The notes under the pieces were generated by a model. It was not told the origin of the DNA, searched no databases, and was given only the letters and a program-made list of their open reading frames with translations. A DNA stretch of 64,000 bases, taken from positions 7,570-71,569 of the forward strand of contig CAKTQR010000003.1 in NCBI GenBank assembly GCA_934597175.1, given 5' to 3'. The first letter of the stretch is position 1, and the number at the start of each line of letters is the position of its first letter. A program made the translations under genes and the position numbers. Positions 20,774 through 46,830 of the stretch are shown here, in pieces. The DNA comes from an uncultured Oscillospiraceae bacterium. GTDB lineage: Bacteria; Bacillota; Clostridia; Oscillospirales; Oscillospiraceae.

Positions 20774-20775
20774 TC

Positions 20776-28665: not shown

Positions 28666-28667
28666 CC

Positions 28668-29444
28668 ATGACGCAGGACGAAAGACGGCGCTATCTCATC
28701 GGAGCGCTCCTCAATGAGCGCTCCGAGCGCATCGAGATGCCGGCCGAGGCGGGCGACCAGCGGCTTTTGCTGCGGGCGCTTATGAATGTGCGTCCGGCGC
28801 AGCGCACGGCGGCGGAGTTTCTCAGGGTGCAGGACGAGTATCTGCACGATGAGCTCGCCGACAAGGGCGTCACCGACATTGACGAGCTCAGCCCCGTGCA
28901 GCCCGGACTGTACCTTTGGCAGGGCGACATTACGACGCTTCGCTGCGACGCCATCGTCAACGCCGCAAACTCCGGGCTCACCGGCTGCTACATCCCCAAC
29001 CACCGCTGCATCGACAACGCCATCCACACCTACGCCGGCGTGCAGCTGCGCCTCGCCTGCGCCGAGCTCATGCGCCGGCAAGGTCACCCCGAGCCGACGG
29101 GGCAGGCGAAGATAACGCCTGCGTTCGACCTGCCGTGCCGCTATGTGCTGCATACGGTCGGACCGATCATCGAGGGACGGGTCACGAAGCGGGACGAAGC
29201 GCTTTTGTGCTCGTGCTACCGCTCGTGCCTCGAGCTGGCGGCGGAAAACGATTTGGAGAGCGTGGCGTTCTGCTGCATCTCGACCGGCGAGTTTCACTTC
29301 CCGAACGAGCGTGCCGCCGAGCTTGCCGTGCGCACGGTCAAGGAATTTTTGACGCAGGAAAGCAGCGTCAGGAGGGTGGTTTTCAATGTTTTCAAGGATA
29401 CCGACAGGCGCATCTACGAGCGGCTTCTCCGAGAAGATCGCTAA
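28668..29444 (+). CDS. macrodomain protein (ADP-ribose hydrolase, SirTM-associated type)
   Basis: GDITTLRCDAIVNAANSGLTGC...IDNAIHTYAGVQL...VLHTVGPI...CISTGEFHFP are macrodomain motifs. 258 aa. Confidence 0.85.
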   Translation: MTQDERRRYLIGALLNERSERIEMPAEAGDQRLLLRALMNVRPAQRTAAEFLRVQDEYLHDELADKGVTDIDELSPVQPGLYLWQGDITTLRCDAIVNAANSGLTGCYIPNHRCIDNAIHTYAGVQLRLACAELMRRQGHPEPTGQAKITPAFDLPCRYVLHTVGPIIEGRVTKRDEALLCSCYRSCLELAAENDLESVAFCCISTGEFHFPNERAAELAVRTVKEFLTQESSVRRVVFNVFKDTDRRIYERLLREDR

Positions 29445-31800: not shown

Positions 31801-31830
31801 AAAAAACGCAATGTGATGCTTCACATTGCG
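31801..31830 (-). terminator. orphaned intrinsic terminator (original guaA terminator)
   Basis: CGCAATGTGA-agca-TCACATTGCG plus TTTTTT on the minus strand. It lies 14 nt downstream of the left copy of the guaA 3'-end repeat, with no gene feeding it. Confidence 0.75.
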
Positions 31831-31844
31831 TTTTGGTGTATGTT

Positions 31845-31860
31845 TTATTCCCACTCGACG
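31845..31860. repeat. attL core (direct repeat)
   Basis: TTATTCCCACTCGACG, identical to 45301-45316. Confidence 0.85.
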
Positions 31861-32108
31861 AGGACTAAACAATTCTGTTTATGCAATTTTGCTTTTCGTT
31901 AGTCTCTCTATTTTGATTTTACGATGTATCTGTATTATCCTTTGCTAAAATGCCCTTGTTATCATTTTGTTATCGTGGTTGATAACAAGAATAATTTCAC
32001 CGTGGATAATATGGAAGTGGTATGTGTGTATTATAGCGTACTTGACCTCAAATTGCAATATGTTTTTCAAAATTTACACGCAATATTTACAAAAAGCGTG
32101 CAAACCTC

Positions 32109-32137
32109 TTGCGATTTAGGGAACAATCTATTATAAT
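32109..32137 (+). promoter_or_regulatory. sigma-A promoter of the cargo operon
   Basis: TTGCGA, 17 nt, then TATAAT. Confidence 0.6.
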
Positions 32138-32163
32138 ATAAACACGCATAATGAGAATGCTGC

Positions 32164-32793
32164 GTGCAGAAAGTTGGTGGCAGTTTGAGTAAGCGCGATA
32201 TCGTAAACGAAGTATTTAATACAGTCGGTGAAGTTGCAAAGAAATCTGATTTCATTTCTGCCGGACTGAAAGAACAAGATGTTTATACGCTTTTTAAGCA
32301 GGGATATATTGAACGTGTCAAGCACGGTTATTATAAGCTGTCTGTTGGGGATGAACTCAAAGAAGAAGTTCTCCTTTCCAAATTGATGACACAAGGCATC
32401 ATTTGTGTTGACTCGGCGCTGTTTTATTACGGTTACAGCGATTTTGCGCCCCGTGAATGGACGATTGCCGTTCCCCGTTCCTATTCCAGAACCGTAAAAG
32501 CCATACAGGAAGAAGTGCCGGTAAAGGCGTATTATGTTCAGAACGATATGTACCACCTCGGTGAAACAACAGGTACTTTTAACGGTGTCACGCTTCCCGT
32601 ATATGACCGTGAACGCACTATCTGTGACTGTTTCAAATACCGCACGAAACTGGATAATGAGATATTTAATAAAGCAATCAACGCCTACGTAGCAGATGAA
32701 AAGAAAAACCTTGCCACTCTTTCCAAATATGCAAAGGAAATGGGCGTGTATAAAAAAATGATGAATGTAATGGAGGTACTGCTTAATGGCTGA
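32164..32793 (+). CDS. abiEi: AbiEi-family antitoxin (type IV TA / abortive infection)
   Basis: N-terminal wHTH (DVYTLFKQGYIERVKHGYYKL). C-terminal block LPVYDRERTICDCFKYRTKLDNEIFNKAINAYV...KNLATLSKYAKEMGV is typical of AbiEi_4. The start may be the TTG at 32185. Confidence 0.85.
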   Translation: MQKVGGSLSKRDIVNEVFNTVGEVAKKSDFISAGLKEQDVYTLFKQGYIERVKHGYYKLSVGDELKEEVLLSKLMTQGIICVDSALFYYGYSDFAPREWTIAVPRSYSRTVKAIQEEVPVKAYYVQNDMYHLGETTGTFNGVTLPVYDRERTICDCFKYRTKLDNEIFNKAINAYVADEKKNLATLSKYAKEMGVYKKMMNVMEVLLNG

Positions 32794-33682
32794 TATTGCT
32801 GCATCTGTGCTTGCACGACTGAAAAATAAGGCTGCCGAAAGCGGAAGAAGTTATCAGCTTTGTCTGCAACTCTTTTGCCAAGAGGAATTTCTGCGCCGTT
32901 TGGAAAAATCCAAATATGCAGAAAATCTTGTGCTGAAAGGCGGCTTGTTTATCTATTCCCTTACCGACTTTGACAGCCGAGTAACAGTTGATGTTGACTT
33001 CTTGCTCCGCCAAATGCCAAATACGCCAGAGCAGTTGAAAACCGTGTTGGAGGAAATTATAGCAACACCTACCGGAAACGACTTTATCTCTTTTGAGATT
33101 AAAGATGTTGCTCCTATTGCTGTTGCCAAAAAGTATGCAGGAATCGGTGCATCGGTGGTCGCTCGCATTAAAAATACCAAAACACCGTTCAGCATTGATT
33201 TCGGTGTGGGGGATGTCATCGTACCGAAACAGGAAAAACGAAAAATCCCGACACAGCTTTCCGACTTTGACGCCCCAACGGTAAATACATATTCCCTTGA
33301 AACAACCATTGCCGAGAAAATAGACGCTATTCTCAGTCTAATGGAATTTTCCAGCAGAATGAAAGATTACTACGATATTTACTATCTTGCCAATAAATTT
33401 GATTTTGACGGAGCTACGCTGACGGAAGCACTGAAAAAGACCTTTGAAAACCGTGGGCATAGCTTTACTGTTGAACAGTTTGAGCAGGTAATGGGCTTTG
33501 ACAGCGACGGCGCAATGCAGAAAAAGTGGAAAGCCTTTGTTCGCAAAATTGATACAAAAACGGATGATTACGGCACCGTGCTGAAAACAATAAAGACGTT
33601 TTTAACAAAACCGTTTGTGGCAGCGGTAGAAGGCAATGCGTTCACAGGTAATTGGACTGCTCCGAACAGTGAGTGGATGTAA
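32786..33682 (+). CDS. abiEii: AbiEii/AbiGii nucleotidyltransferase toxin
   Basis: SVLARLKNKAAESGRSYQLCLQLFCQEEFLRRLEKSKYAENLVLKGGLFIY...VDVDFLL is the family signature. 8-nt overlap with abiEi. Confidence 0.85.
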   Translation: MADIAASVLARLKNKAAESGRSYQLCLQLFCQEEFLRRLEKSKYAENLVLKGGLFIYSLTDFDSRVTVDVDFLLRQMPNTPEQLKTVLEEIIATPTGNDFISFEIKDVAPIAVAKKYAGIGASVVARIKNTKTPFSIDFGVGDVIVPKQEKRKIPTQLSDFDAPTVNTYSLETTIAEKIDAILSLMEFSSRMKDYYDIYYLANKFDFDGATLTEALKKTFENRGHSFTVEQFEQVMGFDSDGAMQKKWKAFVRKIDTKTDDYGTVLKTIKTFLTKPFVAAVEGNAFTGNWTAPNSEWM

Positions 33683-33694
33683 TAGGAGGAAGTT

Positions 33695-36124
33695 ATGAGT
33701 ATAAACAATAATCCATATGATTTTTTGAATACTCCTGCACTTGACGCTATGCGAAAATTGCAGGAAACCGGTGCCTTGACTGCTGCACTTAAAATGGAAA
33801 CAACAGGTGCGTTTGCTGCAGTAAGAGAACTACAAAGTACGCTCAATGCCGTAAAATCATCTATGGGCGGTGCCACTGCGGCACTCGAAGAATATAGAAG
33901 GACCGTTGCTCCAATCTCAGAGTCTATTAAGGCGATGAATCTTGCCTATGCTCCGATTTTTGAGCAGACAAAAGCCTTTGACACCTTGAATATCAAAGGT
34001 ATTATATCGGGATTACAGACAAGTGCATCCGCTATGAGTGCTATATCGGGATTAAATCTTTCAGGGATTGCGAGTATTATTGACGCTCTCCCCAAATACG
34101 ACTTTTTATCAGATATGGTTACGGATGATTTTTCTGTAGATGCTGCCGAAAAGTTATATGAAAGCGGCGAAATCACGCAGGACGATATCAATGAGGAAAT
34201 CACAGAGATTGTCAACAAAAAGCAGTTTTCGCCTAAAGCTGAATGGGACAAGATTAAAAAGAGCAAGTGGTTTATAGCTATTAAAATTTTGATAATTATA
34301 ACTACATTTGTGTGTAACCCTGTTACGGAATATGCTACCGGTAAGGCGCTTGACAAGTTGGGCATTTACGAGTTTTGGGAGGATTCCGGCGTATACGATT
34401 TAATAGATTCAATCTTTGGAGAAAGCGAAGATAGCACAGTGTCTGAGACAGAAGCCAAGGAAACTGTTGATAAAACTAAAACGGGTAACGTATCAAAACA
34501 GAGGCGAGAAGGTTTACTTGCTAAAATTAAAGATATTCGCACCTTTATATCATCTGCACCGCAGGACGAGAATACAGCCAATCTACTCTCATATCTTTCC
34601 GATTTGGAAAAAGATGTGAACGGCAAGAAATATGGACTGGTTTTTGAGGAACATCGTGAGGAAATTGACGAGGTACTTGCCACCCACACACCCGTTCTGA
34701 CCGAACAGAGCGACCTTTATATCGACAACGGCGGTGAAATGAACTTTCTCATTGAGGGCGACAACCTTGCTTCGTTGCAGTTACTTGAAAAAACACACAA
34801 GGGCAAAATTGACCTTATCTACATAGATCCGCCATATAACACAATGAGCACCGGTTTTACATATTCAGATGCTTTGGTTGATAACGGGGATAATTACCGA
34901 CATTCAAAATGGACTTCCTTTATGAAGCATCGTTTGGAACTTGCCCGAACTCTGCTATCTCCTACAGGATGTATTTTCATCTCTATTGACGATAATGAGT
35001 TTGCCGCTCTTAAATTAATCTGCGATGAAGTATTTGGTTGGCAAAACTTTGTTACAACTTGTATGTGGCAAAAAATTCATAGCATAAAAAATGATGCTAA
35101 ATACATATCCGTAAATCATGATTTTATCTTTGTATATGCCAAAAATATTGATCTGCTTAAATTTAATCTTCTTGACAGAACGGACGAAATGAACAGCCGC
35201 TATAAAAATCCCGATAACGATCCAAGAGGACCTTGGCAATCAGGAGATTTAGTTGCAAACGAAGTACGTACAAATGGTAATTATGATGTAATAGGACCAA
35301 CAGGCAAAATTTTCAATGTTCCTGAGGGTAAACATTGGGTGTACTCCGAAGATAATATGCGTACTTTAATTGCAGAAAACAGAATTTGGTTTGGTAAGAA
35401 CGGAACTTCTTTTCCTCGCAAGAAACGTTATTTGTCAGAAGTTCAACAAGGTCGTACACCTGACTCTTGGTGGACGAGTGCTGAAGTCGGGCATAACCAA
35501 GAAGGTGCACGTGAACTAAAATCTATTTTCGACGGCAAAGTGGTGTTTACTAATCCAAAACCCACACGTCTTATTGAACGAATTATTAAGATGGGTTCAA
35601 AAGATAACAGTATAATTCTCGATTTCTTTGCTGGTAGCGGGACACTTGGTCACGCTGTACTAAAATACAATGCAAGTAACGAACATAGTAACCGTCGCTT
35701 TATTCTCTGCACCAACAACGAAAACAATATTTGCCGTGATGTTACATATGAACGCATAAAGCGAGTAATTGATAAAGAAAATTACGAGGCAAGTCTTAAA
35801 TATTACAAGGTAGACTATGTTCCTATAAATGAGCGCATGTATTACGAATATGCGGACGATCTCTTAAAGCATATCCGTGAACTCGTTGAGCTTGAAAACG
35901 GCGTGAACTTTACGGGAAATGATGAAATCGGTATTGTGCTGACCGAAGAAGAACTTGACGAATTCATCGCAAATACCGATGCTTTTACAAAGTGCCGCAA
36001 ACTGTATATGGGACACGACCTTTTGCCAAGTGTTGAGCAGGAACAGATTTTAAGCACTCGTGGCATTGAAATCAGCATTATTCCCGATTATTACTATAGG
36101 GATTTACAGGAGGGAAAAGAATGA
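33695..36124 (+). CDS. mod: type III Mod-like DNA methyltransferase with ~300-aa non-MTase N-terminal extension
   Basis: 809 aa. Beta-class motif order: IV LIYIDPPYNT, then I LDFFAGSGTLGHA. The N-terminus is Ala/Ser/Gly-rich and helical, with a hydrophobic stretch WFIAIKILIIITTFVCNPV. Confidence 0.8.
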   Translation: MSINNNPYDFLNTPALDAMRKLQETGALTAALKMETTGAFAAVRELQSTLNAVKSSMGGATAALEEYRRTVAPISESIKAMNLAYAPIFEQTKAFDTLNIKGIISGLQTSASAMSAISGLNLSGIASIIDALPKYDFLSDMVTDDFSVDAAEKLYESGEITQDDINEEITEIVNKKQFSPKAEWDKIKKSKWFIAIKILIIITTFVCNPVTEYATGKALDKLGIYEFWEDSGVYDLIDSIFGESEDSTVSETEAKETVDKTKTGNVSKQRREGLLAKIKDIRTFISSAPQDENTANLLSYLSDLEKDVNGKKYGLVFEEHREEIDEVLATHTPVLTEQSDLYIDNGGEMNFLIEGDNLASLQLLEKTHKGKIDLIYIDPPYNTMSTGFTYSDALVDNGDNYRHSKWTSFMKHRLELARTLLSPTGCIFISIDDNEFAALKLICDEVFGWQNFVTTCMWQKIHSIKNDAKYISVNHDFIFVYAKNIDLLKFNLLDRTDEMNSRYKNPDNDPRGPWQSGDLVANEVRTNGNYDVIGPTGKIFNVPEGKHWVYSEDNMRTLIAENRIWFGKNGTSFPRKKRYLSEVQQGRTPDSWWTSAEVGHNQEGARELKSIFDGKVVFTNPKPTRLIERIIKMGSKDNSIILDFFAGSGTLGHAVLKYNASNEHSNRRFILCTNNENNICRDVTYERIKRVIDKENYEASLKYYKVDYVPINERMYYEYADDLLKHIRELVELENGVNFTGNDEIGIVLTEEELDEFIANTDAFTKCRKLYMGHDLLPSVEQEQILSTRGIEISIIPDYYYRDLQEGKE

Positions 36125-36558
36125 ATGACTTTTTACAGACACTACTTATAGCATGTATTCCTGCCGTTGTTACGGGAATAGTATCCTATTTGGTTGCACA
36201 TAAAAACGCGTCTTCTCAAGTTAAAATAGTTCAAGAACAAAATGAACACGATATCAAAAAGTTAATGGAACAACACAAAGTTGATATTGATTCATTAAAA
36301 GAAAAATATCGTCTTGAAGCAGAAGAAAAAGATAGAGAACATGTTCGCAAATTGGAGTTAATGCAAAAGGAATATGAATTAAAACTCAAGCAACAAGAAA
36401 GCGAAGCTGAGAATACCGCTAAATACGGAGCAGTGAAAGATATTTTCAGCGGACTTATGGGTGGCATGGTTTCTTCTGCTATAAATACTCCTGAAGTGCA
36501 ACAGCAAATGTCAAAAGCATTTACAGATGCTTTCAAGGCAAAGGATGGTGAGAAATAA
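36121..36558 (+). CDS. N-terminal TM + coiled-coil protein
   Basis: 145 aa. ATGA overlap with mod. TM segment LLIACIPAVVTGIVSYLVA is followed by a Lys/Glu-rich heptad-like region. Confidence 0.65.
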   Translation: MNDFLQTLLIACIPAVVTGIVSYLVAHKNASSQVKIVQEQNEHDIKKLMEQHKVDIDSLKEKYRLEAEEKDREHVRKLELMQKEYELKLKQQESEAENTAKYGAVKDIFSGLMGGMVSSAINTPEVQQQMSKAFTDAFKAKDGEK

Positions 36559-36560
36559 GT

Positions 36561-38747
36561 ATGGAGCTAAAAGAATTTCAGCTTGCAGCAGTAAAATCGC
36601 TGTTTGAGGCTATGGACAAGCCTGCCCGTGATATTATCCTCAAAAGCCCTACGGGTAGTGGTAAAACCATTATTCTGACCTATTTTATGCACCAATACAT
36701 ACAATCTTTTCCGAAGACTGTCTTTGTGTGGCTCACGCCGGGTAAGGGCAACCTTGAGGAACAGAGCAAGGCGAAAATGGATAAGTATATCCACGCTTCA
36801 CAGACCAAACTGCTCTCCGATGTTATGACATCAGGTTTTGAGGAAAACGACAGTTGCTTTATAAATTGGGAGAAGCTCACCAAGAAAGGTAATAACGCCC
36901 TTAAAGACAGCGAACGAACCAATTTTATAGAGCATATTCAGCACGCCCTCAATGACGGTATTCGTTTTATTATTATCGTTGACGAGAGCCACCAAAACAA
37001 CACAATAAAAGCTGATGAAATCATACAGTATTTTCACACGGACAAGATTATCCGCTGTTCTGCTACCCCGAAAGGCATAGCAAAGGCGGAAATCATCGAA
37101 ATACCCGAAGAAGATGTAATTGCGGCGGGACTTATCAAGAAAATGCTTGTTATCAACCAAGATTTTCCGCAAACGATAGAAACGGACGATCAAACGGCGT
37201 TTCTTCTTGAAAAGGCACTCCTAAAGCAGAGAGAACTCCGTGCAGCATTTTTACAAAACGATACTGATATTAACCCGCTTATCGTGATTCAGATTCCGAA
37301 TAAATCAGAAACCTTACAGGACGGCGTGGAACGCTACCTTGAAACACAAGGATTGACTTACGAAAACGGACAACTTGCGGTATGGCTCTCCGACCAACAC
37401 GAAAACTTGGAGGGGATTGACAAACCTAATGCCGTATCTTCTGCCGTTATCATAAAGCAAGCGGTTGCTACAGGTTGGGATTGTCCGAGAGCACATATTC
37501 TCGTAAAGCTCCGTGATAATATGGACGAAACCTTTGAAATACAAACCATAGGACGTATTCGCCGTATGCCCGAAGCAAAGCATTATCAAAGTGATCTGCT
37601 TGATAGTTGCTATCTTTACACTCTCGACGAAAAATTTACCGCAGGTGTAAAACTGGCTCTCGATAAGGGTGCGTTAAATGCTTGTACTCTTTTCCTCAAA
37701 AACGAGCATAAAGATGTAATGCTCATTAGTGAGCAGAGAACAATGATTACAAGTACCCGTAATCCGCAAAAGGCACTACAAGCTGTTGTATCCTATGCTC
37801 AAAAAGAACTCGGAGTTGGTACGGACAAGACGGAAAATCGCACCCGTTTGCAAACCGCAGGATATGAACTGAGTGAAAATATCGTGAAGCATACCCTGTC
37901 AGGCGAAACTGCTACTCTTGATTTTGCGGCAGCAGATATGAACACTATTGCAGTTACAGAAAAACTAAACACCCATAAGCACGGACGAGATTACCACCAC
38001 GAAATCGGTAAAATCGGCATGGAAATTGGTATGGAATACTCCTATATGAATACCATTATCCGTAAACTATTTGATAAGAATTTCAAGTATAGTCGCAAGA
38101 TCCTTGCTTTAGAGCCGAGAGAAGTTTACGCATTTGTACTAAACAATGCCGACCGACTACGCCATTTGGTTCGTGAAGCTATGGCTTATGAGTTAGCACA
38201 ATTGCAGTTGGAAATTAAGCAGAAATCTTATTATGAGTTCCGCATTCCGCAGTCTTGTTTGTTTACCTATAACGGTGATGCAAAAACACAGCTCATTATG
38301 AAAAAGAACGTGTATCAGAATTATCTTTCCTCTGCTGCACCACGCTCTGTGCCGGAGGTTAAATTTGAAAAATTCTGTGAGCGTTCCGACAGTGTTGAAT
38401 GGTGGTATAAGAACGGGGACAAGGGCAACGAGTATTTTTCTATCGTCTATGTGGACAATTCCAATAGACAAAAACTGTTCTACCCCGACTATATTATTTC
38501 CGTAAACGGTGAGTTGTGGATTATCGAAACCAAAGGCGGATTTGACCGTAGCGGTAATAGTCAAGATATTGACCTTTATACACCGAAGAAATTTGGTGTG
38601 TTGAAAGCATATCTTGATGAGCACGGCTTAAAGGGTGGTATCGTGCGTAACGATGCAACTACCGATGAACTGTGTATCTGTATGTATCACTATTCCGATG
38701 ATATAGGCAGTAATGATTGGCAAGTGCTTGAAAGCGTATTGCCGTGA
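36561..38747 (+). CDS. res: type III Res-like SF2 helicase / PD-(D/E)xK nuclease
   Basis: 728 aa. Motif I KSPTGSGKT, motif II VDESHQN, and a C-terminal nuclease-like YPDYIIS...LWIIETKGG. Confidence 0.8.
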   Translation: MELKEFQLAAVKSLFEAMDKPARDIILKSPTGSGKTIILTYFMHQYIQSFPKTVFVWLTPGKGNLEEQSKAKMDKYIHASQTKLLSDVMTSGFEENDSCFINWEKLTKKGNNALKDSERTNFIEHIQHALNDGIRFIIIVDESHQNNTIKADEIIQYFHTDKIIRCSATPKGIAKAEIIEIPEEDVIAAGLIKKMLVINQDFPQTIETDDQTAFLLEKALLKQRELRAAFLQNDTDINPLIVIQIPNKSETLQDGVERYLETQGLTYENGQLAVWLSDQHENLEGIDKPNAVSSAVIIKQAVATGWDCPRAHILVKLRDNMDETFEIQTIGRIRRMPEAKHYQSDLLDSCYLYTLDEKFTAGVKLALDKGALNACTLFLKNEHKDVMLISEQRTMITSTRNPQKALQAVVSYAQKELGVGTDKTENRTRLQTAGYELSENIVKHTLSGETATLDFAAADMNTIAVTEKLNTHKHGRDYHHEIGKIGMEIGMEYSYMNTIIRKLFDKNFKYSRKILALEPREVYAFVLNNADRLRHLVREAMAYELAQLQLEIKQKSYYEFRIPQSCLFTYNGDAKTQLIMKKNVYQNYLSSAAPRSVPEVKFEKFCERSDSVEWWYKNGDKGNEYFSIVYVDNSNRQKLFYPDYIISVNGELWIIETKGGFDRSGNSQDIDLYTPKKFGVLKAYLDEHGLKGGIVRNDATTDELCICMYHYSDDIGSNDWQVLESVLP

Positions 38748-38762
38748 TGGGGGTGTTGGAAT

Positions 38763-39359
38763 ATGACTATTGATTCATTTGAAGTAGTATTCTACACCTG
38801 CATATTCCTTCTTCCTGGTTTTATTATCAAAAGCATTATGGATACATTGGTTCCGCCTATTAAACATAACGATACAAAGTATTTTTTCTCTTGTTTGTTG
38901 TATAGCATTGTTAATTGTGCAGTTTGGAGTTGGGCGTATCTATTGCTCAATAAAATTTCTGAAGAACATCCCACAATTTATTGGATTTCGCTGCTTGCAA
39001 TAACTGTAGTAGGAGCAACTCTACTTGCTATTTTTATCGGGGTTGTAAAGCAAAAGGGATTCATCGAGTGGTTATTTGCAAAAATGAGGGTCAACAAGAT
39101 TCATCCCGTTCCAACTGCATGGGATTATTACTTTTCAAAACAAGAAGAAGCGTGGATCATTGTAACTTTGAAGAATGGTAAAACCATATATGGAAAATTC
39201 TCCGAGCATTCTTTTGCATCTTCTGACGCTGAAGAACGAGATCTTTATATTGAAAAAACTTACAATATTAAAGAAGATATGACTTGGGTAGAAGATGACA
39301 AAAGCAATGGAATACTTGTTGCAAAAGATGAAGTTGAAACTATAGAATTTCTAATTTAA
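38763..39359 (+). CDS. membrane protein with soluble C-terminal domain (DUF6338-like)
   Basis: 198 aa. Three hydrophobic segments, then PVPTAWDYYFSK...WIIVTLKNGKTIYGKF. The family name is from memory. Confidence 0.6.
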   Translation: MTIDSFEVVFYTCIFLLPGFIIKSIMDTLVPPIKHNDTKYFFSCLLYSIVNCAVWSWAYLLLNKISEEHPTIYWISLLAITVVGATLLAIFIGVVKQKGFIEWLFAKMRVNKIHPVPTAWDYYFSKQEEAWIIVTLKNGKTIYGKFSEHSFASSDAEERDLYIEKTYNIKEDMTWVEDDKSNGILVAKDEVETIEFLI

Positions 39360-39372
39360 AGGAAGTGAAAAA

Positions 39373-39549
39373 ATGAGCGACACAAAGAAGCCTAATCCTA
39401 ATACAAATTTTGGCTATCAGCCTAACAGTGAGCAACGTGGATATCAACCCAAGAAAGGAATAAATGAAGGGTATCAACCTACAAAGTCTATATCTACTCA
39501 ACCACCTAATAAAGGCTCAAATGTTCAGCCGGCAAAAAATGATAAGTAA
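39373..39549 (+). CDS. 58-aa GYQP-repeat peptide (absent from the ORF track)
   Basis: My translation: MSDTKKPNPNTNFGYQPNSEQRGYQPKKGINEGYQPTKSISTQPPNKGSNVQPAKNDK. AAGGAAG RBS lies 7 nt upstream. It is the last gene before the hairpin. Confidence 0.5.
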   Translation: MSDTKKPNPNTNFGYQPNSEQRGYQPKKGINEGYQPTKSISTQPPNKGSNVQPAKNDK

Positions 39550-39555
39550 AAAAAC

Positions 39556-39587
39556 GGGGTAGCATAGTACAATCACTGTGCTACCCC
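39556..39587. terminator. hairpin between convergent operons
   Basis: GGGGTAGCA-loop-TGCTACCCC. An A-run precedes it on the plus side, which reads as a T-run for the minus-strand tnpV. Confidence 0.65.
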
Positions 39588-39594
39588 GAAACAT

Positions 39595-39975
39595 TTATAA
39601 CGTAATAATCAAATCATTATTCACAATTTCTGTTGCTCTGCTACGAATATCATTCATTCGACCAACCCACGCCATTTGATTGTCCGCTTTGAGTTGTTCG
39701 GTCACGCCCTCGTATTCTGCCATCTGTTTCACCAGCCTAGAAAACATTTCTTCCGCCTGTCGGTTAATATCAGCAAGGTAACTGTTTAACTTGCCGCTTG
39801 TCAGCAGATTGGTGTATAGTACCCTTCGATTTTGCTTGATGTGTCGCAAATGTCGTTGCCCCCATATGCCGATTGGCTGTTGTTCTTCAGCGGGTAACGC
39901 AAGGTCGGGTAGATAATAATCTCCTTGCAAGGTGTAGTTGATTCCCGTTTTTTCGTCCGTAAAATGCTGTTTCAT
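39595..39975 (-). CDS. tnpV: TnpV-like transposon-associated protein
   Basis: YTLQGDYYLPDLALP...IGIWGQRHLRHIKQNRRVLYTNLLTSGKLNSYLADI...QLKADNQMAWVGRMNDIRSRATEIV matches the TnpV pattern of clostridial mobilizable elements. Confidence 0.75.
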   Translation of the reverse strand: MKQHFTDEKTGINYTLQGDYYLPDLALPAEEQQPIGIWGQRHLRHIKQNRRVLYTNLLTSGKLNSYLADINRQAEEMFSRLVKQMAEYEGVTEQLKADNQMAWVGRMNDIRSRATEIVNNDLIITL

Positions 39976-39984
39976 TGTGTTGCC

Positions 39985-41163
39985 CTACCTTTCATCTTTA
40001 TAATTTCTAAAGCGTTTTTCACGCTGTTTAGACTGCTTTTCCGACTTTGCTCTATCAAGCAAGTCATCAATTTGTTTATGACCAAATACTTTGCGGAGAA
40101 GTTTGTAATTCCTGTTTTCCGCACGCAGATTTTCATTCTCTCGTGATAATTTTTCATTAACTTTCGATAACTTCTCGTTTTCACGATATAGGTTTCCGTT
40201 TGTGATGTTCAATCTGTGGTAACTGTCCAACGCCTTGAAATATCGTGCAAATAAGGTGCTTATTAAAGACTTAAATCGGGATATAAGCGGCTCAACAAAC
40301 TTTGCCTTATAAGTTCTCGCCGACATCATTGCAGGCGGTTCAGGCAACTGATATTCAGGCTCATTCATTATGCTTTCATCAAGATTTTGTAACGATCTTT
40401 CGCCGTTATCAAAGTTTTCAATGCGGTCAGCCATAACACGAAATTCATCTTTCTTTTCAGCTAGTTTATCTTCAAGAGCGTTAATTTCTTTTTCTCGCTC
40501 CTGCTTTTTGTAATCCAAAACAGACAGGTGTTTTTCGTGAGTACCCTTGTGTTCCCATTCAATTCCGTGGCGTTCCATAACAAATGCGAGTGCGGATTTT
40601 TCTACGCTTACCCATTGGTTCCACTCGGTATCTCCACGCGTTCCGCCCTTAAAACCTTGGGCAGCAAGAGCCTGTTTCAGAGATACTCTTGTATCAAGTC
40701 CACGCTTGCTACCCGTGATGAACGGAACAAAATCAATGTGCAAATGTGGCGTTGCTTCATCCATATGCAGATGAGCCGAGAACACTTTTAACTGAGGATT
40801 TCTTTCCTGAAACCCACGATAGTATTCATCTAAAATTTGTCGGGCAATCTCTCCGTTTTCACTTTCCGCACTCATATTTTCTTTATCGCCTATCTGCAAA
40901 ATGAGTTCGTGGAACGGCTTTTCTTGCTTTGAATTACGGATTTTTTCATAGTAGTTTTCTATTCTGCGGTCGGCTCTTGTCTGTTTATCGTTGTACTTTT
41001 CAAGTGCTTCGTCAAACAATTCGTGATAGACTTTCTTGATATTTTCATTACAGTAGTCGATATTGAGATGTGTTCGACTGCCGTCAACATTTTCCGCTTT
41101 GAACTTGCGGCTGTTGTGATTAACCGAGCCTTTACCGACCATTGCGCTTATCGTTCTTTTCAT
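39985..41163 (-). CDS. mob: MobV-family relaxase (Mob_Pre / plasmid recombination enzyme)
   Basis: Conserved HLHMDEATPHLHIDFVP histidine motif and N-terminal GKGSVNHNSRKF. 392 aa with a coiled-coil C-terminus. Confidence 0.85.
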   Translation of the reverse strand: MKRTISAMVGKGSVNHNSRKFKAENVDGSRTHLNIDYCNENIKKVYHELFDEALEKYNDKQTRADRRIENYYEKIRNSKQEKPFHELILQIGDKENMSAESENGEIARQILDEYYRGFQERNPQLKVFSAHLHMDEATPHLHIDFVPFITGSKRGLDTRVSLKQALAAQGFKGGTRGDTEWNQWVSVEKSALAFVMERHGIEWEHKGTHEKHLSVLDYKKQEREKEINALEDKLAEKKDEFRVMADRIENFDNGERSLQNLDESIMNEPEYQLPEPPAMMSARTYKAKFVEPLISRFKSLISTLFARYFKALDSYHRLNITNGNLYRENEKLSKVNEKLSRENENLRAENRNYKLLRKVFGHKQIDDLLDRAKSEKQSKQREKRFRNYKDER

Positions 41164-41206
41164 TAAATCTCACATCCTTTCCTTATCCGGCGTCAGCCGG
41201 GGTTCT

Positions 41207-41227
41207 GTTACTCTTGTCAAGAGTAAC
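41207..41227. promoter_or_regulatory. perfect 10-bp inverted repeat, candidate oriT hairpin
   Basis: GTTACTCTTG-t-CAAGAGTAAC, 44 nt upstream of the mob start. MobV oriTs normally lie just upstream of mob. Confidence 0.35.
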
Positions 41228-41510
41228 GCAAAAGCACTTTTGACAGCCTACTGCCATCAAAAGCTGCTATTGCGCTCTCCGAGGGGTGCGGGTCGCCGGT
41301 GGCGACCTCTGCCGGCTTCAGTCGGCAGAAGCACCGACCGAGCCGACAGGCGAGACAGGGGCTTTGCCCCATTGTCTGCGGACAACTCCCCAGCGGAGCC
41401 GCCCTTTGAAAAGGGCACCCTGCACCTCGCCTAAACTTCGTATTGGCATACCTGCCGAAAAAGAACATTGCAAGATTGCGAAAGTCCCGCACCTTTACAA
41501 TGTTGCAACC

Positions 41511-42485
41511 TTACTGATCGCTGCTCTCTTTTTCTTCGGGTAGTTGCCAATACCACATACTGCCTTCCTTAACAGATCGCACACGCAGAGTTTTCTTTGC
41601 TTCATCGAGCACTCGTTTGGAGATATCTAAACTCTGCGCCTTTTGCAGCAAGGTCTGTTGCGGGTACTTCCCGCCGGATAGGTAGTCAACGATAAGGCTT
41701 TCAGCCATATCGGATTTCTTCTCACGACTGATGCCGCTGAGAAGATCGTCGATGGAAATATCATAATGACCGAGCCATTTGAAGCCGTTGGCTTCACTCA
41801 GTTCAAATGCGATAGGTTTGCCTTCCGGTGCGAGGGAAGATTTTTGATGTGCCGCCACTCGTATCTCCGGTTTGTCCTTTACTCTGCCAACTACAAGGAC
41901 GCTTCTTGCTGTTGCTTGAAAGTCTATGGAACCAAGACCTCTATAATTGGATTTGTTACCCTGTGCCTTGTTTAAGTGTCCCACAAGTATAATCGCACAA
42001 CGGTATTTCTCAGCGATCCTGCCAAGCTGAGAGAGAATGGTACGGACTTCATTTGCTCGGTTCATATCTACCTTTGCGCCGATATAGGCTTGCATTGGAT
42101 CTAAAATCATTACCCTTGCACCTGTTTCTGCAATAGCTTTTTCTACTCTCTCGTCAAGCATCGTCAATGCTGCCTCAGATTCGTCGATCACCTTGATTTG
42201 TGAGCAGTCTGCATTACCGGCAAGAAGACGAGGCTTGATGGTATCCCCAAGCCCATCCTCTGCGGTTTGATATATTACCTTAATCGGCTCGCGCTCGGTG
42301 TCGTCGCAGGGTAGTTTTTCTCCCCTTGACAACAGAGCCGCTAATCTCAATATCAGTGTTGTTTTTCCTTCACCGCCGTCGCCGTGAATGATTGTCAACT
42401 TACCGTATGGGATATAGGGATACCACAGCCATTCCACTTCTTCGACGGGCACCTCATCCATACTGATGATTTTTAATTCCGCCAT
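41511..42485 (-). CDS. RepA-like AAA/RecA-fold ATPase (AAA_25 type) with C-terminal wHTH
   Basis: Walker A HGDGGEGKTTL, Walker B VMILDP. 324 aa. Confidence 0.7.
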   Translation of the reverse strand: MAELKIISMDEVPVEEVEWLWYPYIPYGKLTIIHGDGGEGKTTLILRLAALLSRGEKLPCDDTEREPIKVIYQTAEDGLGDTIKPRLLAGNADCSQIKVIDESEAALTMLDERVEKAIAETGARVMILDPMQAYIGAKVDMNRANEVRTILSQLGRIAEKYRCAIILVGHLNKAQGNKSNYRGLGSIDFQATARSVLVVGRVKDKPEIRVAAHQKSSLAPEGKPIAFELSEANGFKWLGHYDISIDDLLSGISREKKSDMAESLIVDYLSGGKYPQQTLLQKAQSLDISKRVLDEAKKTLRVRSVKEGSMWYWQLPEEKESSDQ

Positions 42486-42621
42486 AGGCGTTGCCTCCTT
42501 TCAATTTTTCTCAAAACTATTGAAATTGGAGGAGTCATAGGTTATAATACTTGCAGTACATTTTTGAGAAGACTGTTCCGTATCTGCGCCAACAGATACA
42601 TTGAGAACAGTCTTTTCGGTT

Positions 42622-42954
42622 TTATATGCCATCCTTTTGCTCCTTCATTCCATATAGCGTGGTGTTAATCTGCTCAATACGGTCGAGCAAGTCATCGTGA
42701 ACTCCTGCGCCGGCTTCGATGCGTTTAAGTTCATCGAGGACGGCGGTAAGCTCGTTTCGCAGGGCCTTATAGACTCTCGGATTGCCGACAACCGTTATTT
42801 GCTGCTTCAGAGCACGGGCACAAAGATAATCCTGCTTTGTCAGTCCCGATATTCTGACATTACTGTCCAAAATAGCAGCCTCCTGCGGCGACATACGAAA
42901 AGCAATTGTTTTGCTCCTCCAACGGTTGTGACGGTCAAGATTTTTAGCGGACAT
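42622..42954 (-). CDS. MobC-like relaxosome accessory protein
   Basis: 110 aa from the ATG at 42954. KTIAFRMSPQEAAILDSNVRISGLTKQDYLCARAL is an RHH-like MobC pattern. 11-nt overlap with int. Confidence 0.6.
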   Translation of the reverse strand: MSAKNLDRHNRWRSKTIAFRMSPQEAAILDSNVRISGLTKQDYLCARALKQQITVVGNPRVYKALRNELTAVLDELKRIEAGAGVHDDLLDRIEQINTTLYGMKEQKDGI

Positions 42955-44032
42955 TTTCAATATCCATCCTTTCATATTCAAGTTTCTTTGCCATTTCCGT
43001 CTGCTTTGACGGGAATAGGTGTGCATAGCGATATGTGATCTCAATGCTTTCGTGACCGACACGGTCGGCAATTGCCACCGCAGAAAAGCCCATATCTATG
43101 AGCAGGGAAATATGGCTATGGCGCAAGTCGTGAATGCGGATACGCTTCACCCCTGCGGCTCTTGAGCCACGATCCATTTCTCGGTGCAGATAATTCTTTG
43201 AAATGGGGAATATACGGTCTTTCTTTTTGTAGCCGTACAGCATACCGATATAATCCTGCATTTCCTCACAGAGAAACTGCGGCATTTTAATTGTGCGGTT
43301 GCTTTTCCTTGTTTTCGGTGTGGTAATGACATCTTCGCCGTGCAAACGCTGATAAGATTTGCTGATTGTAACAGTACCTTTTTTAAAGTCGAAGTCCCCC
43401 GCAGTCAGAGCGAGTAACTCGCCCTCACGAATGCCACACCAGTAAAGCATTTCAAATGCGTAGTATGATACGGGCTTGTCCATCATTTCATCGGCAAACT
43501 TCTTGTACTCTTCTTTCGTCCAAAACTTCATTTCCTTGCGTTCCTCTGTGCCCATATTCCCGGCTTTTGCGGCGGGATTGGAACGAAGGTCATAATGTCT
43601 TACAGCGTGGTTAAAGATGGCACTAAGCTGATTGTGGACGGTTTTGAGATAGGTCTGTGAATACGGCTTCTTCTTTTCATCACGAAAAGCGAGCAGTTCA
43701 TTCTGCCAAGCGATTACATCCTTTGTGGTGATCTCACTGACATTTTTCTTTTCAAAATAGGGTAAAATCTTGGTTTCAATGATATGCTTTTTGGTCAGCC
43801 AAGTGTTTTCTTTTAAGCGGGGTTTTATGTCCTTTATATAAAGCTCAACAAAGGCGGAAAAGTTCATATCCATATCGGCAGCACTTTGCTGCTTAAATAC
43901 TCGCTCCCACTCCTGCGCCTCTCGTTTGGTTTCAAAGCCTCGCTTGCATTTCTGTTTGCGCTCGCCTTTCCAATCTACATATCGTGTTAAAACATACCAA
44001 GTGCCGTTATCTTCATTTTTATAAACAGGCAT
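42944..44032 (-). CDS. int: tyrosine integrase (Tn916-type, AP2-like N-terminal arm-binding domain)
   Basis: N-terminus YKNEDNGTWYVLTRYVDWKGERKQKCKRGFETKREAQEWE. Catalytic R...HDLRHSH...Y (ITYRYAHL). Overlaps xis by 14 nt. Confidence 0.9.
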   Translation of the reverse strand: MPVYKNEDNGTWYVLTRYVDWKGERKQKCKRGFETKREAQEWERVFKQQSAADMDMNFSAFVELYIKDIKPRLKENTWLTKKHIIETKILPYFEKKNVSEITTKDVIAWQNELLAFRDEKKKPYSQTYLKTVHNQLSAIFNHAVRHYDLRSNPAAKAGNMGTEERKEMKFWTKEEYKKFADEMMDKPVSYYAFEMLYWCGIREGELLALTAGDFDFKKGTVTISKSYQRLHGEDVITTPKTRKSNRTIKMPQFLCEEMQDYIGMLYGYKKKDRIFPISKNYLHREMDRGSRAAGVKRIRIHDLRHSHISLLIDMGFSAVAIADRVGHESIEITYRYAHLFPSKQTEMAKKLEYERMDIENVR

Positions 44033-44219
44033 TTTTGTTCTCCTTTCTGGCTTGGTACAGCCTTTCATTAAAATACTCTCTGTTGACTCTTCCCGAGATG
44101 GTAATAAAGCCTTTACGCTTTAGTTCCTCATTCAGCTCTCGTATGACTTTGTAGGCATACGAGGTTGAAACATCGAGAATCTCAGCGACTTCTTCCACTC
44201 GCATAAACTGTTGTCCCAT
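44019..44219 (-). CDS. xis: excisionase-type HTH protein
   Basis: 66 aa. MRVEEVAEILDVSTSYAYKVIRELNEELKRKGFITISGRV is HTH_17/Xis-like. GGAGG lies 7 nt upstream. Confidence 0.8.
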   Translation of the reverse strand: MGQQFMRVEEVAEILDVSTSYAYKVIRELNEELKRKGFITISGRVNREYFNERLYQARKENKNACL

Positions 44220-44473
44220 AAGTTTCCTCCTTTCTTCGGTTAGTATAATGGGGTGCCGTTCTACCCAAGTGCCGTTCCTACCCCTGCTTTTTCAGCGGCG
44301 TTGTCTCGCTCGCTCCGTCGCCACTCGGAGGTCTTGGCAAAATCATATCCCACTTAGACGGTCATTCATTTTTACTAAGCGCATATGCTTAGTCTTATAT
44401 CATTATACTAAGCATATTTGCTTTTGTCAAGTGGTTTGCGAGAAAATACTAAACTTTTTTGTTTGGAATCTTC

Positions 44474-44502
44474 TTGACAGCACTAAACATTTCTGCTATA
44501 CT
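44474..44502 (+). promoter_or_regulatory. sigma-A promoter of the XRE regulator
   Basis: TTGACA, 17 nt, then TATACT. The palindrome ACTAAGC-gcatat-GCTTAGT (44374-44393) and a half-site repeat lie upstream. Confidence 0.6.
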
Positions 44503-44532
44503 ATGTACGAACACTTGAAAAGAGGTGCTTTT

Positions 44533-45063
44533 ATGGCTATTAGCGAAAGAATTCACTTTTTCCGCAATCTACGTGGAATGACACAAAAATATCTCGGATT
44601 ACAGCTCGGTTTTCCCAATAAATCTGCTGATGTTCGTATGGCACAGTATGAAACAGGTTCCCGTACTCCAAAAGCAGATATTACTGCAGCGTTGGCACAA
44701 GTTTTGGATGTAGCACCTGAAGCGTTGAATGTGCCCGATATTGACAGTTACATAGGTCTGATGCACACGCTGTTTGCCCTTGAGGACATTTACGGCATTA
44801 CCGTCAGCGAAGCAGACGGGGAAGTGTGTCTTAAAGTCAACTCTGAGAAGGGGAAGGATGCCGCAGAAATTATTCGTATGCTTACCGCTTGGAAAGAGCA
44901 AAAAGCCAAACTCGATGCATGTGAGATTGATAAAGATACCTACGACCAATGGCGTTACCACTATCCTAAGTTCGACACGACGGGCGGTTGGGTAAAGGCT
45001 CCTTCGGAGGAACTGAACGATATAATGTTAGACACCTTCAAAGATCGCCTGAAACCCGACTAA
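44533..45063 (+). CDS. XRE-family HTH regulator
   Basis: 176 aa from the ATG at 44533. FFRNLRGMTQKYLGLQLGF...RMAQYETGSRTPKADITAALAQVLDV. Confidence 0.8.
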   Translation: MAISERIHFFRNLRGMTQKYLGLQLGFPNKSADVRMAQYETGSRTPKADITAALAQVLDVAPEALNVPDIDSYIGLMHTLFALEDIYGITVSEADGEVCLKVNSEKGKDAAEIIRMLTAWKEQKAKLDACEIDKDTYDQWRYHYPKFDTTGGWVKAPSEELNDIMLDTFKDRLKPD

Positions 45064-45076
45064 GAAAAAAGACGAC

Positions 45077-45122
45077 AAAAAGCCCTTAACTGCGGTACAA
45101 ATCCACAGTTAAGGGCTTTTTA
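45077..45122 (+). terminator. terminator of the XRE gene
   Basis: AAAAGCCCTTAACTG-loop-CAGTTAAGGGCTTTTT. Confidence 0.75.
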
Positions 45123-45300
45123 ATCGTATAATACAGATTTATTTCTTGGTAACAGCCATTTGAGAATTATTCTGATAACCTACAAGCCACTTGGGGTATA
45201 GAATAATAGTCACTTCAAGGGATGTTATCAAATCGTTATCAAAAGGGGTGGGCAAAGTCCGAAAAGCCTTGATATTACTGGGTTTTTAGACTTTCTGGGA

Positions 45301-45316
45301 TTATTCCCACTCGACG
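45301..45316. repeat. attR core (direct repeat) = last codons of guaA
   Basis: TTATTCCCACTCGACG. The reverse complement encodes ..VEWE and the stop. Confidence 0.85.
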
Positions 45317-46830
45317 GTGGCGGGGGGTTTGCTGGTGATGTCGTAGACGACACGGGTGACATTGGGCACTTCGTTTGTGATGCGGTTGGACGCTTTCGAG
45401 AGCATGTCATATGGCAGGCGTGACCAGTCTGCGGTCATGAAGTCGTCGGTGGTGACGGCTCTGAGGACTATCGTTCCGCCGTAAGTTCTCGCATCGCCCA
45501 TGACGCCGACGCTCAGGCTGCTGTCCAAGACGGCGAAGAACTGGCTCGTCACGGCGTCGAGACCGAAGTTTTTCATCTCCTCACGGAAGATGAAGTCGGC
45601 TTTCTGCACGGTGGCGATCTTCTCCCGGGTTATCTCGCCGAGGATGCGGATGGCAAGGCCCGGACCGGGGAACGGCTGGCGGGACACGAGATACTCGGGC
45701 AGGCCGAGCTCACGGCCGAGCTGGCGCACCTCGTCCTTAAACAGCATGCGCAGCGGCTCGATTATCTCCTTGAAATCGACAAAATCGGGCAGACCGCCGA
45801 CATTGTGGTGGCTCTTTATGGTTGCCGAAGCGCCGAGGCCGGACTCGATGATGTCGGGGTATATCGTGCCCTGTGCGAGGTAGTCGACAGAGCCTATCTT
45901 CTTGCTTTCTTCCTCGAAAACACGGATGAACTCCTCGCCTATTATCTTGCGCTTGCGCTCGGGCTCGGTAACGCCCGTAAGCTTGTTAAGAAATCTATCG
46001 GCAGCGTCGACACGGACAAAATTGATGTTCCACTTTGAAAACGCCTGCTCGACCTCGTCGCCCTCGTTAAGGCGCATAAGGCCGTGGTCGACGAACACGC
46101 ATGTGAGCTGGCTGCCAACGGCTTCGGCGAGCAGCGCTGCGCACACGGAGGAGTCCACGCCGCCGGAGAGGGCGAGCAGCACCTTGCCGTCGCCTATCTT
46201 CTCACGAAGCTCGGCGATCGCCGTTTTGCAGTAGCTGTCCATGTGCCAATCGCCTGCACACTTGCAGACCTTGAACAGGAAGTTGTGCAGTATCTGCGCA
46301 CCGAACTCGGTGTGCGTCACCTCGGGGTGGAACTGGACGCCGTAGAGCCTGCGCTCATCGTCGCACATTGCGGCGCACGGGCAGCTATCGGTCGTAGCGG
46401 TTATTGAAAAGCCCTCGGGCGGGGTCTTTATATAATCGGTGTGGCTCATCCAGCAGACGCTGTCTGCGGGCACGCCGTCAAACAGCACACTTTTTTGCGT
46501 GTGGAGCGTTACCTTGCCGTACTCGCTGATGCTTCCGGCGGAGCAAATTTCGCCGTTTCCCATCCACGCCATGAGCTGGCAGCCGTAGCAGATGCCCAGC
46601 ACGGGGATGCCGGCTGAAAGTATCGCCGGGTCAAAGTGCGGCGAGTGCTCGTCGTACACGCTGTTCGGGCCGCCGGTAAAGATTATGCCGGTGTAGCCTG
46701 CAGCTTTTATCTCGTCAAGGGTGATGCCGTTGTAGCCCTTGACCTCTGCGAAAATTTTGTGCTCGCGCACTCTGCGGGCGATAAGCTGATTGTACTGCCC
46801 GCCGAAATCCAGTACCAGAATTTTGTCCAT
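45301..46830 (-). CDS. guaA: GMP synthase (glutamine-hydrolysing)
   Basis: 509 aa. GATase (GICYGCQLM), the [10 protein letters not shown]-loop, and the C-terminal dimerisation domain ending VEWE. Confidence 0.95.

Follow-up and report, generated by a model that had tools for sequence, protein, structure and literature searches.

The guaA gene, which encodes GMP synthase, is at its 3′ end an established target for elements that are integrative and conjugative (ICEs) or integrative and mobilizable (IMEs), among them Tn5801/Tn6647, ICE_SmiB6_guaA, the streptococcal Tyr_3 IMEs, GIsul2, an IncP island of Brucella and ATE-1. The guaA-specific ICEs Tn5801 and Tn6647 use an 11-bp att site, GAGTGGGAATA, at this gene (PMC4844618; bioRxiv 10.64898/2026.03.26.714560). 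ATE-1 of Trueperella (Arcanobacterium) pyogenes is described in Tables 1–3 of PMC5704250 as an IME of ~10.8 kb at the guaA 3′ end with a MobV relaxase, and defence systems on IMEs are documented (PMC10201445). The element described here occupies positions 31845–45316 (13.4 kb) of a 64-kb stretch of DNA from an uncultured Oscillospiraceae bacterium (contig CAKTQR010000003.1). The whole stretch is referred to as the window and all coordinates are window positions; L-numbers (for example L113) denote loci from a public collection that were compared with it. The element is very probably an IME, in which an integrase and excisionase (Int and Xis) would act at a core sequence in guaA under an XRE-type switch, a NikA-like/MobV relaxosome would prepare the DNA for the type IV secretion system (T4SS) of a helper, and defence genes form the cargo.

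The element is bounded by a direct repeat, one copy of which is the end of guaA itself. The target gene and the two ends are:
45301–46830, minus strand: guaA (GMP synthase), the target gene, intact, with GMP_synt_C and GATase domains.
45301–45316, unstranded: proximal direct repeat (attR side), formed by the last codons and stop of guaA, with the core GAGTGGGAAT at 45303–45312.
31845–31860, unstranded: distal direct repeat (attL side), with the core GAGTGGGAAT on the minus strand at 31847–31856.

The 64 kb contain the 16-mer TTATTCCCACTCGACG at these two positions only, and allowing up to two mismatches adds no further copy (0.03 expected). The proximal copy reads GTC GAG TGG GAA TAA, or V-E-W-E-stop, and the C-terminus of GuaA is ...T-V-E-W-E. 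A preliminary description, made from the letters of the window alone, had proposed the perfect repeat, its coincidence with the end of guaA and an interior richer in A+T than both flanks. An exact search, the reading frame with its Pfam domains, and the G+C profile (0.38–0.49 inside, 0.52–0.62 in the flanks) agree with these three proposals, and the 16-mer is not frequent elsewhere in the window; many copies elsewhere in the genome were what that description had named as speaking against its reading. Copies in other genomes start and stop at the edges of the repeat and support the reading of 31845–45316 as a discrete integrative element.

Integration-site specificity can be judged by comparing junctions across hosts. 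At the proximal junction the bases 5′ of GAGTGGGAAT are host-specific (GATT, AGTA, TATT, CGTG) and those after it are element-specific (AAtcacagaaag...). At the distal junction the element's ...agtcctCGTC is followed by GAGTGGGAAT, then by the stop variant of the host (TAA, TAG or TGA) and the host flank. This comparison places strand exchange within the 10-bp GAGTGGGAAT, which encodes the conserved Glu-Trp-Glu at the C-terminus of GMP synthase. The functional core indicated by the alignments is 10–11 bp, GAGTGGGAAT(A), and not the entire 16-mer; the identity extends to 16 bp in the window since CGTC stands on the host side too. Tyrosine integrases specific for the guaA 3′ end are characterized by inserting into the last guaA codons with the core GAGTGGGAATA, and the core derived from these junctions equals the published 11-bp att site of Tn5801/Tn6647. 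In integration the tyrosine integrase recombines the attP core GAGTGGGAAT with the identical Glu-Trp-Glu codons of the GMP synthase gene. The element contributes the remainder of the stop codon together with a new 3′ untranslated region and a bidirectional terminator, so that guaA stays intact while its own terminator is displaced to the far end. The two terminators concerned are:
31801–31834, minus strand: native guaA intrinsic terminator, displaced 13.4 kb from guaA; hairpin at 31803–31834 with a U-run at 31801–31806, recognized from empty-site alleles.
45076–45122, unstranded: bidirectional terminator supplied by the element, with a 20-bp stem, ending xre (plus strand) and guaA read-through (minus strand).

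The hairpin at 31803–31834 has a 14-bp stem and a U-run on the minus strand (−19.9 kcal/mol, z = −4.7). For 7.7 kb upstream the minus strand holds no gene, and nothing feeds the hairpin because the adjacent upstream genes are cargo genes on the plus strand. Both the fold and the map of open reading frames (ORFs) therefore match what the preliminary description had seen here, a strong minus-strand terminator beyond the left repeat without a feeding gene, which it took for the displaced terminator of guaA. It had proposed looking for an empty site in which guaA runs directly into this terminator, and such alleles exist. The GuaA cluster at 90% identity has 202 members, several of them with an unoccupied site; these were located through the cluster members after an exact-junction search of the JGI contigs had given none. 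In L113, L114 and L116 the guaA stop is followed after ~10 nt by the hairpin AAAACGCAATGTGAAG..TCACATTGCGTTTTTT, the same as that at window 31803–31834. GuaA of L113 and L114 shows 6 amino-acid differences from that of the window, and the L113 gene is 94% identical at the nucleotide level. Beyond the hairpin, both loci carry a homologue of the gene at window 30358–31653 and then Sir2-like, Macro, PNPOx and HxlR genes in the window order, and the spacing from the stop to the next gene is 191 nt in L113 and 191 nt in the reconstructed window site. L098–L102 and L115 also have an empty site; a different hairpin takes the same place there, and both flanks are syntenic. In the GuaA P0003 lineage 8 contigs are empty and 2 are occupied by other members of the element family. 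These alleles support the view that the 31801–31834 hairpin is the original guaA terminator, moved to the far end of the element. On the minus strand, 180 nt separate the guaA stop from the element's own terminator downstream, which so replaces the displaced one and had been overlooked in the preliminary description.

The same element is found behind guaA-type genes of other hosts. The public collection lists the exact sequence of one of its proteins, an AAA_25 ATPase, in 665 blocks, and the ten places read contain essentially the same element at 99.2–99.9% nucleotide identity. In the full-length copies L106, L111 and L112 the alignment runs from the proximal repeat to the final base of the distal one. 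The guaA-type genes in front of the copies are only 51–70% identical to GuaA of the window, and the host flanks have 40–55% G+C. An element so nearly identical behind such diverged genes must therefore have entered at least five diverged hosts very recently, and the comparison indicates recent horizontal spread of this very sequence among gut Clostridia. Nine of the ten places show integration at a guaA-type core, directly or in a tandem array, and the remaining one, L108, is a block without int. In L108 (1–9105 and 9616–20328) a NikA-AAA_25-MobV-TnpV-R-M-AbiE block (R-M, restriction–modification) without XRE-Xis-Int adjoins VirD4-like, DUF3801, LPD and Toprim genes, an arrangement that possibly reflects association with a helper or a recombinant.

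Beyond the near-identical copies, the family is large and its cargo varies. The variant in L104 has kept the integration module and carries a BglII-type R-M system, an MT-A70 methylase and Thoeris genes. In L118 (Subdoligranulum variabile OY725880.1, 57337–76404) two identical 8-kb tet(W) relatives lie in tandem, each with the order XRE-Xis-Int-NikA-distant MobV-tet(W), an Int 82% identical to that of the window and the same GATAAC class of arm site (see below). A third element, of a different arm class, follows the tandem pair, and all are separated by GAGTGGGA cores. These tet(W) elements tie the family to the spread of tetracycline resistance. Related XRE-Xis-Int modules stand directly downstream of guaA in many GTDB species, which answers a call in the preliminary description for guaA-targeting relatives. 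An integrase search returned at least 8,000 clusters, all with E ≤ 1e-20; this number and the 665 blocks with the AAA_25 protein make the element very common in gut metagenomes. A scan of GTDB species genomes with GuaA gave 73% identity for the best among the matches listed.

In L106, L109, L110, L111, L030 and L067 the DNA past the distal core often belongs to the proximal end of a further family member whose arm hexamer differs, so that these elements form tandem arrays at guaA. A further arrangement was seen in L103 (6205–7185), L105, L109 (6232–7185) and L112 (4326–5306), in which the element stands behind a gene for 317–326 amino acids corresponding only to the ATP-pyrophosphatase/GMP_synt_C half of GuaA. 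In L103, L105 and L112 this shorter gene comes after a full-length guaA (516 amino acids), and in L109 it lies beside an ABC-transporter operon; its product also ends in ...IEWE-stop.

The recombination genes lie next to the proximal end, and arm-type sites lie inside both ends:
42944–44032, minus strand: tyrosine integrase with an N-terminal arm-binding domain (Pfam Arm-DNA-bind_4, Phage_int_SAM_3 and Phage_integrase).
44019–44219, minus strand: putative excisionase (Xis), with a 14-nt overlap with int (NCBIfam ICEBs1 excisionase, 6.5e-18; weak HTH_17).
31958–31986, minus strand: predicted distal arm-type sites, GATAAC at 31958–31963 and 31969–31974 as direct copies with 11-bp spacing, and an inverted copy at 31981–31986.
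45174–45240, minus strand: predicted proximal arm-type sites, GATAAC at 45224–45229 and 45235–45240 as direct copies with 11-bp spacing, and an inverted copy at 45174–45179.

Gene calls and family matches agree with the earlier reading of a tyrosine integrase overlapping xis, and the catalytic motifs GIREGE, HDLRH and YRYAHL of the integrase are intact. Its matches in a PDB sequence search are distant only (3nkh, and Tn1549 Int, 6en0, weakly), and the integrases matched on Staphylococcus and Enterococcus plasmids are only 27–32% identical to it. One such Enterococcus ‘plasmid’ match was considered as a proxy for Tn5801 and rejected, being a prophage integrase at rpmA.

The arrangement GATAAC-N5-GATAAC occurs exactly only at 31958–31974 and 45224–45240 (0.14 expected, from counts in shuffled sequences). 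The preliminary description had listed these pairs on the opposite strand as GTTATC, together with the inverted copy at 31981–31986, and all are present; it had overlooked the inverted copy at 45174–45179, with which each arm has one. Fifteen related loci from different species have an identical hexamer pair, 11 bp apart, roughly 50–80 nt inside the guaA stop, the hexamer being GATAAC, GATAGC, GGCAAC, GATACT, GGCTAC, GCTACT, GACAAC or GAGTAC according to lineage. At the far end of L030, L022, L037 and L067 the same lineage-specific pair recurs ~105–150 nt inside the distal core and in the same orientation, matching the window. The N-terminal β-strand region of the integrase groups by hexamer class and the helix–turn–helix of the XRE protein does not; in L037 the GATAGC class was predicted from the integrase and then confirmed. 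The hexamer pairs are thus most likely protein-binding arm sites for the arm-binding domain of the integrase, as the preliminary description had supposed, given that equivalent pairs in both arms of relatives co-vary with this domain. In the intasome, pairs one helical turn apart and one inverted copy per arm would most likely be read by the N-terminal domain of Int, and Xis would direct excision. A strict ‘orthogonal arm code in tandem arrays’ was also considered and is weakened by the two tet(W) elements of the same class in tandem in S. variabile. The lineage-specific hexamers that track the integrase N-terminal domain offer a testable series for protein–DNA recognition.

The region between the recombination genes and guaA holds the putative switch:
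44533–45063, plus strand: XRE-family repressor of 176 amino acids (Pfam HTH_3; weak NCBIfam RstR-type repressor), next to guaA in many relatives.
44372–44502, unstranded: divergent promoter/operator region with Pxis, Pxre and four ACTAAGC..GCTT boxes.

Pxis (minus strand; −35 at 44430, −10 at 44402) matches the consensus at 12 of 12 positions and Pxre (44474–44502) at 11 of 12, and the two stand back to back. The four boxes overlap both promoters, and 44374–44393 is a perfect 20-bp palindrome. The xre–xis region looks like a repressor switch with its operators, in which the divergent XRE repressor would control the strong promoter that would drive xis-int-nikA-orf43-AAA_25-mobV-tnpV as one leftward unit. 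The only Rfam match over the element is below threshold and corresponds to the terminator hairpin.

This leftward unit includes the genes by which the element would be mobilized:
42622–42870, minus strand: NikA-like ribbon–helix–helix relaxosome accessory protein, 82 amino acids as called (Pfam NikA-like, 1.4e-13).
42501–42632, minus strand: orf43, a small conserved ORF (gene calls in L001 and L103–L112).
41511–42485, minus strand: RecA-fold AAA_25 ATPase (‘RepA-like’), with a putative role (Pfam AAA_25, 9.9e-29).
41207–41262, minus strand: candidate origin of transfer (oriT), with the conserved block TGTCAAAAGTGCTTTTGCGTT and the inverted repeat GTTACTCTTG/CAAGAGTAAC.
39985–41142, minus strand: MobV-family relaxase (Pfam Mob_Pre, 4.3e-23).
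39595–39975, minus strand: tnpV (Pfam TnpV, 4.2e-49).

The relaxase scores 82.6 bits against the Mob_Pre cutoff of 25.5 and has both motifs of the MOBV class, HNSR (HxxR) and HMDEATPHLH (HxDExxPHxH); its match in the PDB, to the MobM structure 4lvi, is weak. Pfam matches bear out the MobV relaxase, TnpV and XRE regulator named in the preliminary description. The protein it called MobC-like matches the NikA-like ribbon–helix–helix family instead, and of its ‘RepA-like ATPase’ the ATPase stands, as AAA_25, and the name of the RepA helicase was not taken, PDB matches being to generic RecA/RadA proteins only. Tn4451 encodes a TnpV protein, from which the Pfam family takes its name.

No T4SS or coupling-protein gene (VirB4, VirD4, TcpA-like) lies between the repeats, where every ORF is assigned or too small. 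The element thus has its own integrase, bounding att sites at a specific target and its own MobV relaxase, and no complete set of T4SS/coupling genes, and the earlier designation as an IME rather than an ICE holds. In the 368-nt gap upstream of mobV, the block TGTCAAAAGTGCTTTTGCGTT and the 10-bp inverted repeat are kept in relatives whose MobV is 52–73% identical. The surrounding region, 41195–41450, is GC-rich (about 60%) within an element of 40% G+C, folds as single-stranded DNA far better than shuffled sequences (z = −5.9), varies by indels between relatives in its central part and has no match in Rfam; perhaps it also holds a single-strand origin. By analogy with the relaxase family, the oriT upstream of mobV would be processed in the excised element by the NikA-like protein and MobV, and a single strand would leave via the T4SS of a co-resident conjugative element, such a helper being needed because the IME has no T4SS of its own.

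The mobilization genes also bear on two other readings of the locus. The element could be mainly an autonomous circle driven by a RepA-like protein, a small plasmid that integrates only occasionally. An AAA_25/DnaB_C-like ATPase beside a strongly structured GC-rich region would fit, as would the relaxase, Mob_Pre proteins being typical of small rolling-circle plasmids. However, no initiator (Rep) gene or origin was recognized in the element, none of the ten places examined holds a free circle, and comparison of the whole element with 72,556 plasmid records (PLSDB) gave a single 51-nt match, which makes a plasmid very improbable. It could also depend on phage, either as a satellite resembling the phage-inducible chromosomal islands or as an island that is mainly transduced and not conjugatively mobilized. 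Staphylococcal pathogenicity islands, too, combine an int-xis-repressor layout with the guaA target. The element has a divergent repressor followed by xis-int and then by an ATPase that could be a replication helicase, and 13.4 kb would fit a small capsid. Phage transduction of the clostridial MobV element Tn6215 is the subject of an entry in the reference list of PMC5704250. Against this stand the MobV relaxase with both signature motifs and the ribbon–helix–helix accessory protein, the L108 mobilization-cargo block that adjoins conjugative-element genes, and the ORFs of the element, among which there is no gene for a terminase small subunit, capsid remodelling, primase or packaging. The satellite was rejected on the relaxase and on the lack of packaging genes in Pfam and PADLOC (PHROGs were not searched), and dependence on phage in general is highly unlikely.

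The left 7.4 kb of the IME, on the plus strand, is a block of defence cargo, AbiE and a type III R-M system, that the preliminary description did not list:
32109–32137, plus strand: promoter-like site upstream of the cargo operon, TTGCGA-17-TATAAT, a consensus match only.
32164–32793, plus strand: abiEi, antitoxin/transcriptional regulator of AbiE (PADLOC AbiEi, 4.8e-60).
32786–33682, plus strand: abiEii, nucleotidyltransferase toxin of AbiE (Pfam AbiEii, 3.5e-47; PADLOC, 1.6e-93).
33695–36124, plus strand: type III R-M methyltransferase, Mod (PADLOC MTase_III, 1.4e-116; Pfam N6_N4_Mtase).
36121–36558, plus strand: orf145, of no family, between mod and res (gene calls).
36561–38747, plus strand: type III R-M restriction subunit, Res (Pfam ResIII, 1.2e-18; PADLOC REase_III, 1.4e-18, partial coverage).
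38763–39359, plus strand: DUF6338 membrane protein (Pfam).

The genes abiEi and abiEii are adjacent with an 8-nt overlap, as in AbiE systems (type IV toxin–antitoxin/abortive infection). Mod and Res lie in one operon, as in type III R-M systems, with the extra ORF of 145 amino acids in between. Mod has an unassigned N-terminal extension of ~264 amino acids that contains a hydrophobic stretch, and Res combines the ResIII helicase with a C-terminal PD...ETK motif read from the translation. Only the segment 34842–36561, covering the N-terminal part of Mod and orf145, differs between copies otherwise 99% identical (Mod 809 or 837 amino acids, orf145 145 or 125). AbiE and the R-M system are predicted to give phage defence and probably stabilize the element; they would both favour its retention and benefit the host.

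Several observations weigh against an element that is still mobile as proposed. The guaA Val codon 5′ of the core (window 45313) is GTC in the window and in the occupied loci L093 and L095, whereas all empty alleles sampled from the same GuaA cluster (L088, L098, L113–L116) have GTG. A simple crossover model is insufficient for this mismatch; polymorphism at the wobble base may account for it, or else the exchanged or heteroduplex segment may occasionally extend further. Xis, of fitting position and size, scores 64 bits against the 100-bit cutoff of the NCBIfam ICEBs1 excisionase, and MobV, at 49.6 bits, is below the 100-bit cutoff of the NCBIfam MobV equivalog. The 41207–41262 segment, a conserved block, is a candidate oriT only. 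No conjugative element that might serve as helper was noted within the window, of which the ORFs outside ~28.6–49.5 kb were listed by position and length and not searched. All 6 contigs read with the exact left-flank protein of this strain are occupied (5 places shown, each from a different sample), and in this lineage excision may be rare or the element fixed. The strain's attB, as reconstructed exactly (ATGTT + core + GTGG), is absent from the JGI metagenome contigs, and the attP junction of an excised circle, which the preliminary description had proposed to look for, has no match in the JGI metagenome contigs or IMG/VR. That description would have given up its reading if relatives had no empty-site allele and excision products were not found; empty alleles exist in related lineages, and no excision products were found.

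The occupied contigs and the lack of attP and restored attB would suit a once-mobile island that has become a fixed, non-transferring defence island, with att sites and intact-looking genes and no excision or mobilization, for whose retention the AbiE and R-M cargo can select. This is nevertheless unlikely. The ORFs for integrase, MobV and Xis are intact and catalytic motifs are present, the near-identity to copies in hosts with such diverged GuaA implies very recent transfer, and circles are rarely captured by assemblies, so that negative searches for attP and attB are weak evidence. All three alternatives, the immobile island, the phage satellite and the replicative plasmid, are less likely than an IME.

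Two neighbouring regions of the window are also variable. Just beyond the guaA terminator, the minus-strand gene at 30358–31653 encodes a secreted protein without a Pfam match that is hypervariable between close lineages (426, 431, 535, 538 or 669 amino acids, 49–71% identity), its promoter/leader and neighbours being conserved. Homologues are found in L098 (11729–13345), L100 (10689–12698), L113 (5722–7002) and L114 (5716–7323). Between this gene and MatE, the block at 25216–30264 encodes a Sir2-like (292 amino acids) and Macro (258 amino acids) pair, PNPOx, HxlR, a Dcm-type methylase (477 amino acids) and an unassigned protein of 354 amino acids, and is absent from the sister lineage L098–L101. 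This second variable region by the guaA hotspot may be the decayed remains of an earlier insertion, or may consist of defence genes. Further away, at 20000–22100, an AT-rich patch (G+C 0.39–0.43) with HicB-type antitoxin and DUF4357 genes is present in the sister lineage L100 too.

For annotation, the analysis provides the ends, core, arm sites, switch region and cargo of a widespread unnamed IME. The conserved C-terminal codons of a housekeeping gene serve as a universal landing pad across bacterial families, of which this is a clean natural example, and phage-defence systems, and tet(W) in close relatives, are shuttled on a constant mobilizable backbone. A broader and tentative proposal is that the guaA 3′ end is a docking site with multiple slots, shared by small IMEs of gut Clostridia that form a very large family, with one 10-bp core, an arm code co-diversified with the integrase arm-binding domain, and cassettes swapped on a constant backbone. 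If this were true, elements stacked in tandem could excise independently, and cassettes (AbiE with type III R-M, BglII-type R-M with Thoeris, tet(W)) could spread across families in very short evolutionary time.

The closest described element is ATE-1, compared by description only. Like the window element it has a tyrosine integrase, a guaA 3′-end target, MobV, a toxin–antitoxin pair and no T4SS, but its cargo is tet(W) instead of AbiE and type III R-M and its host belongs to another phylum. The Tn5801/Tn6647-type ICEs of Staphylococcus and Enterococcus share the insertion at the guaA 3′ end and the identical 11-bp core. They are self-transmissible with a Tn916-type conjugation module, whereas the window element has no conjugation genes and carries a MobV relaxase. 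The streptococcal guaA-targeting IMEs with integrases of the Tyr_3 family and ICE_SmiB6_guaA show tandem accretion at one att site, as seen here (PMC5704250). By description, the streptococcal IMEs differ in host (Bacilli instead of Clostridia), mobilization modules and cargo. The clostridial mobilizable transposons Tn4451/Tn4453 and Tn6215 have a Mob_Pre/MobV relaxase in common with the window element (PMC5704250). Tn4451 uses a large serine recombinase of low target specificity, in contrast to the site-specific tyrosine integrase and Xis found here. The Tn916 integrase is similar in its N-terminal arm-binding domain (Pfam Arm-DNA-bind_4) and in the direct repeats in both arms, to which Int-N of Tn916 binds. 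Tn916 has low target specificity and another core, whereas the window element has the fixed core GAGTGGGAAT and an arm hexamer that varies by lineage. Earlier descriptions already cover targeting of guaA and the 11-bp core, IMEs with MobV, accretion in tandem, and IMEs that carry defence cargo, and current concepts are unchanged. To these the present locus adds a clostridial family that is precisely delimited and extremely widespread, whose cargo is exchangeable and whose arm sites form a lineage-specific series.

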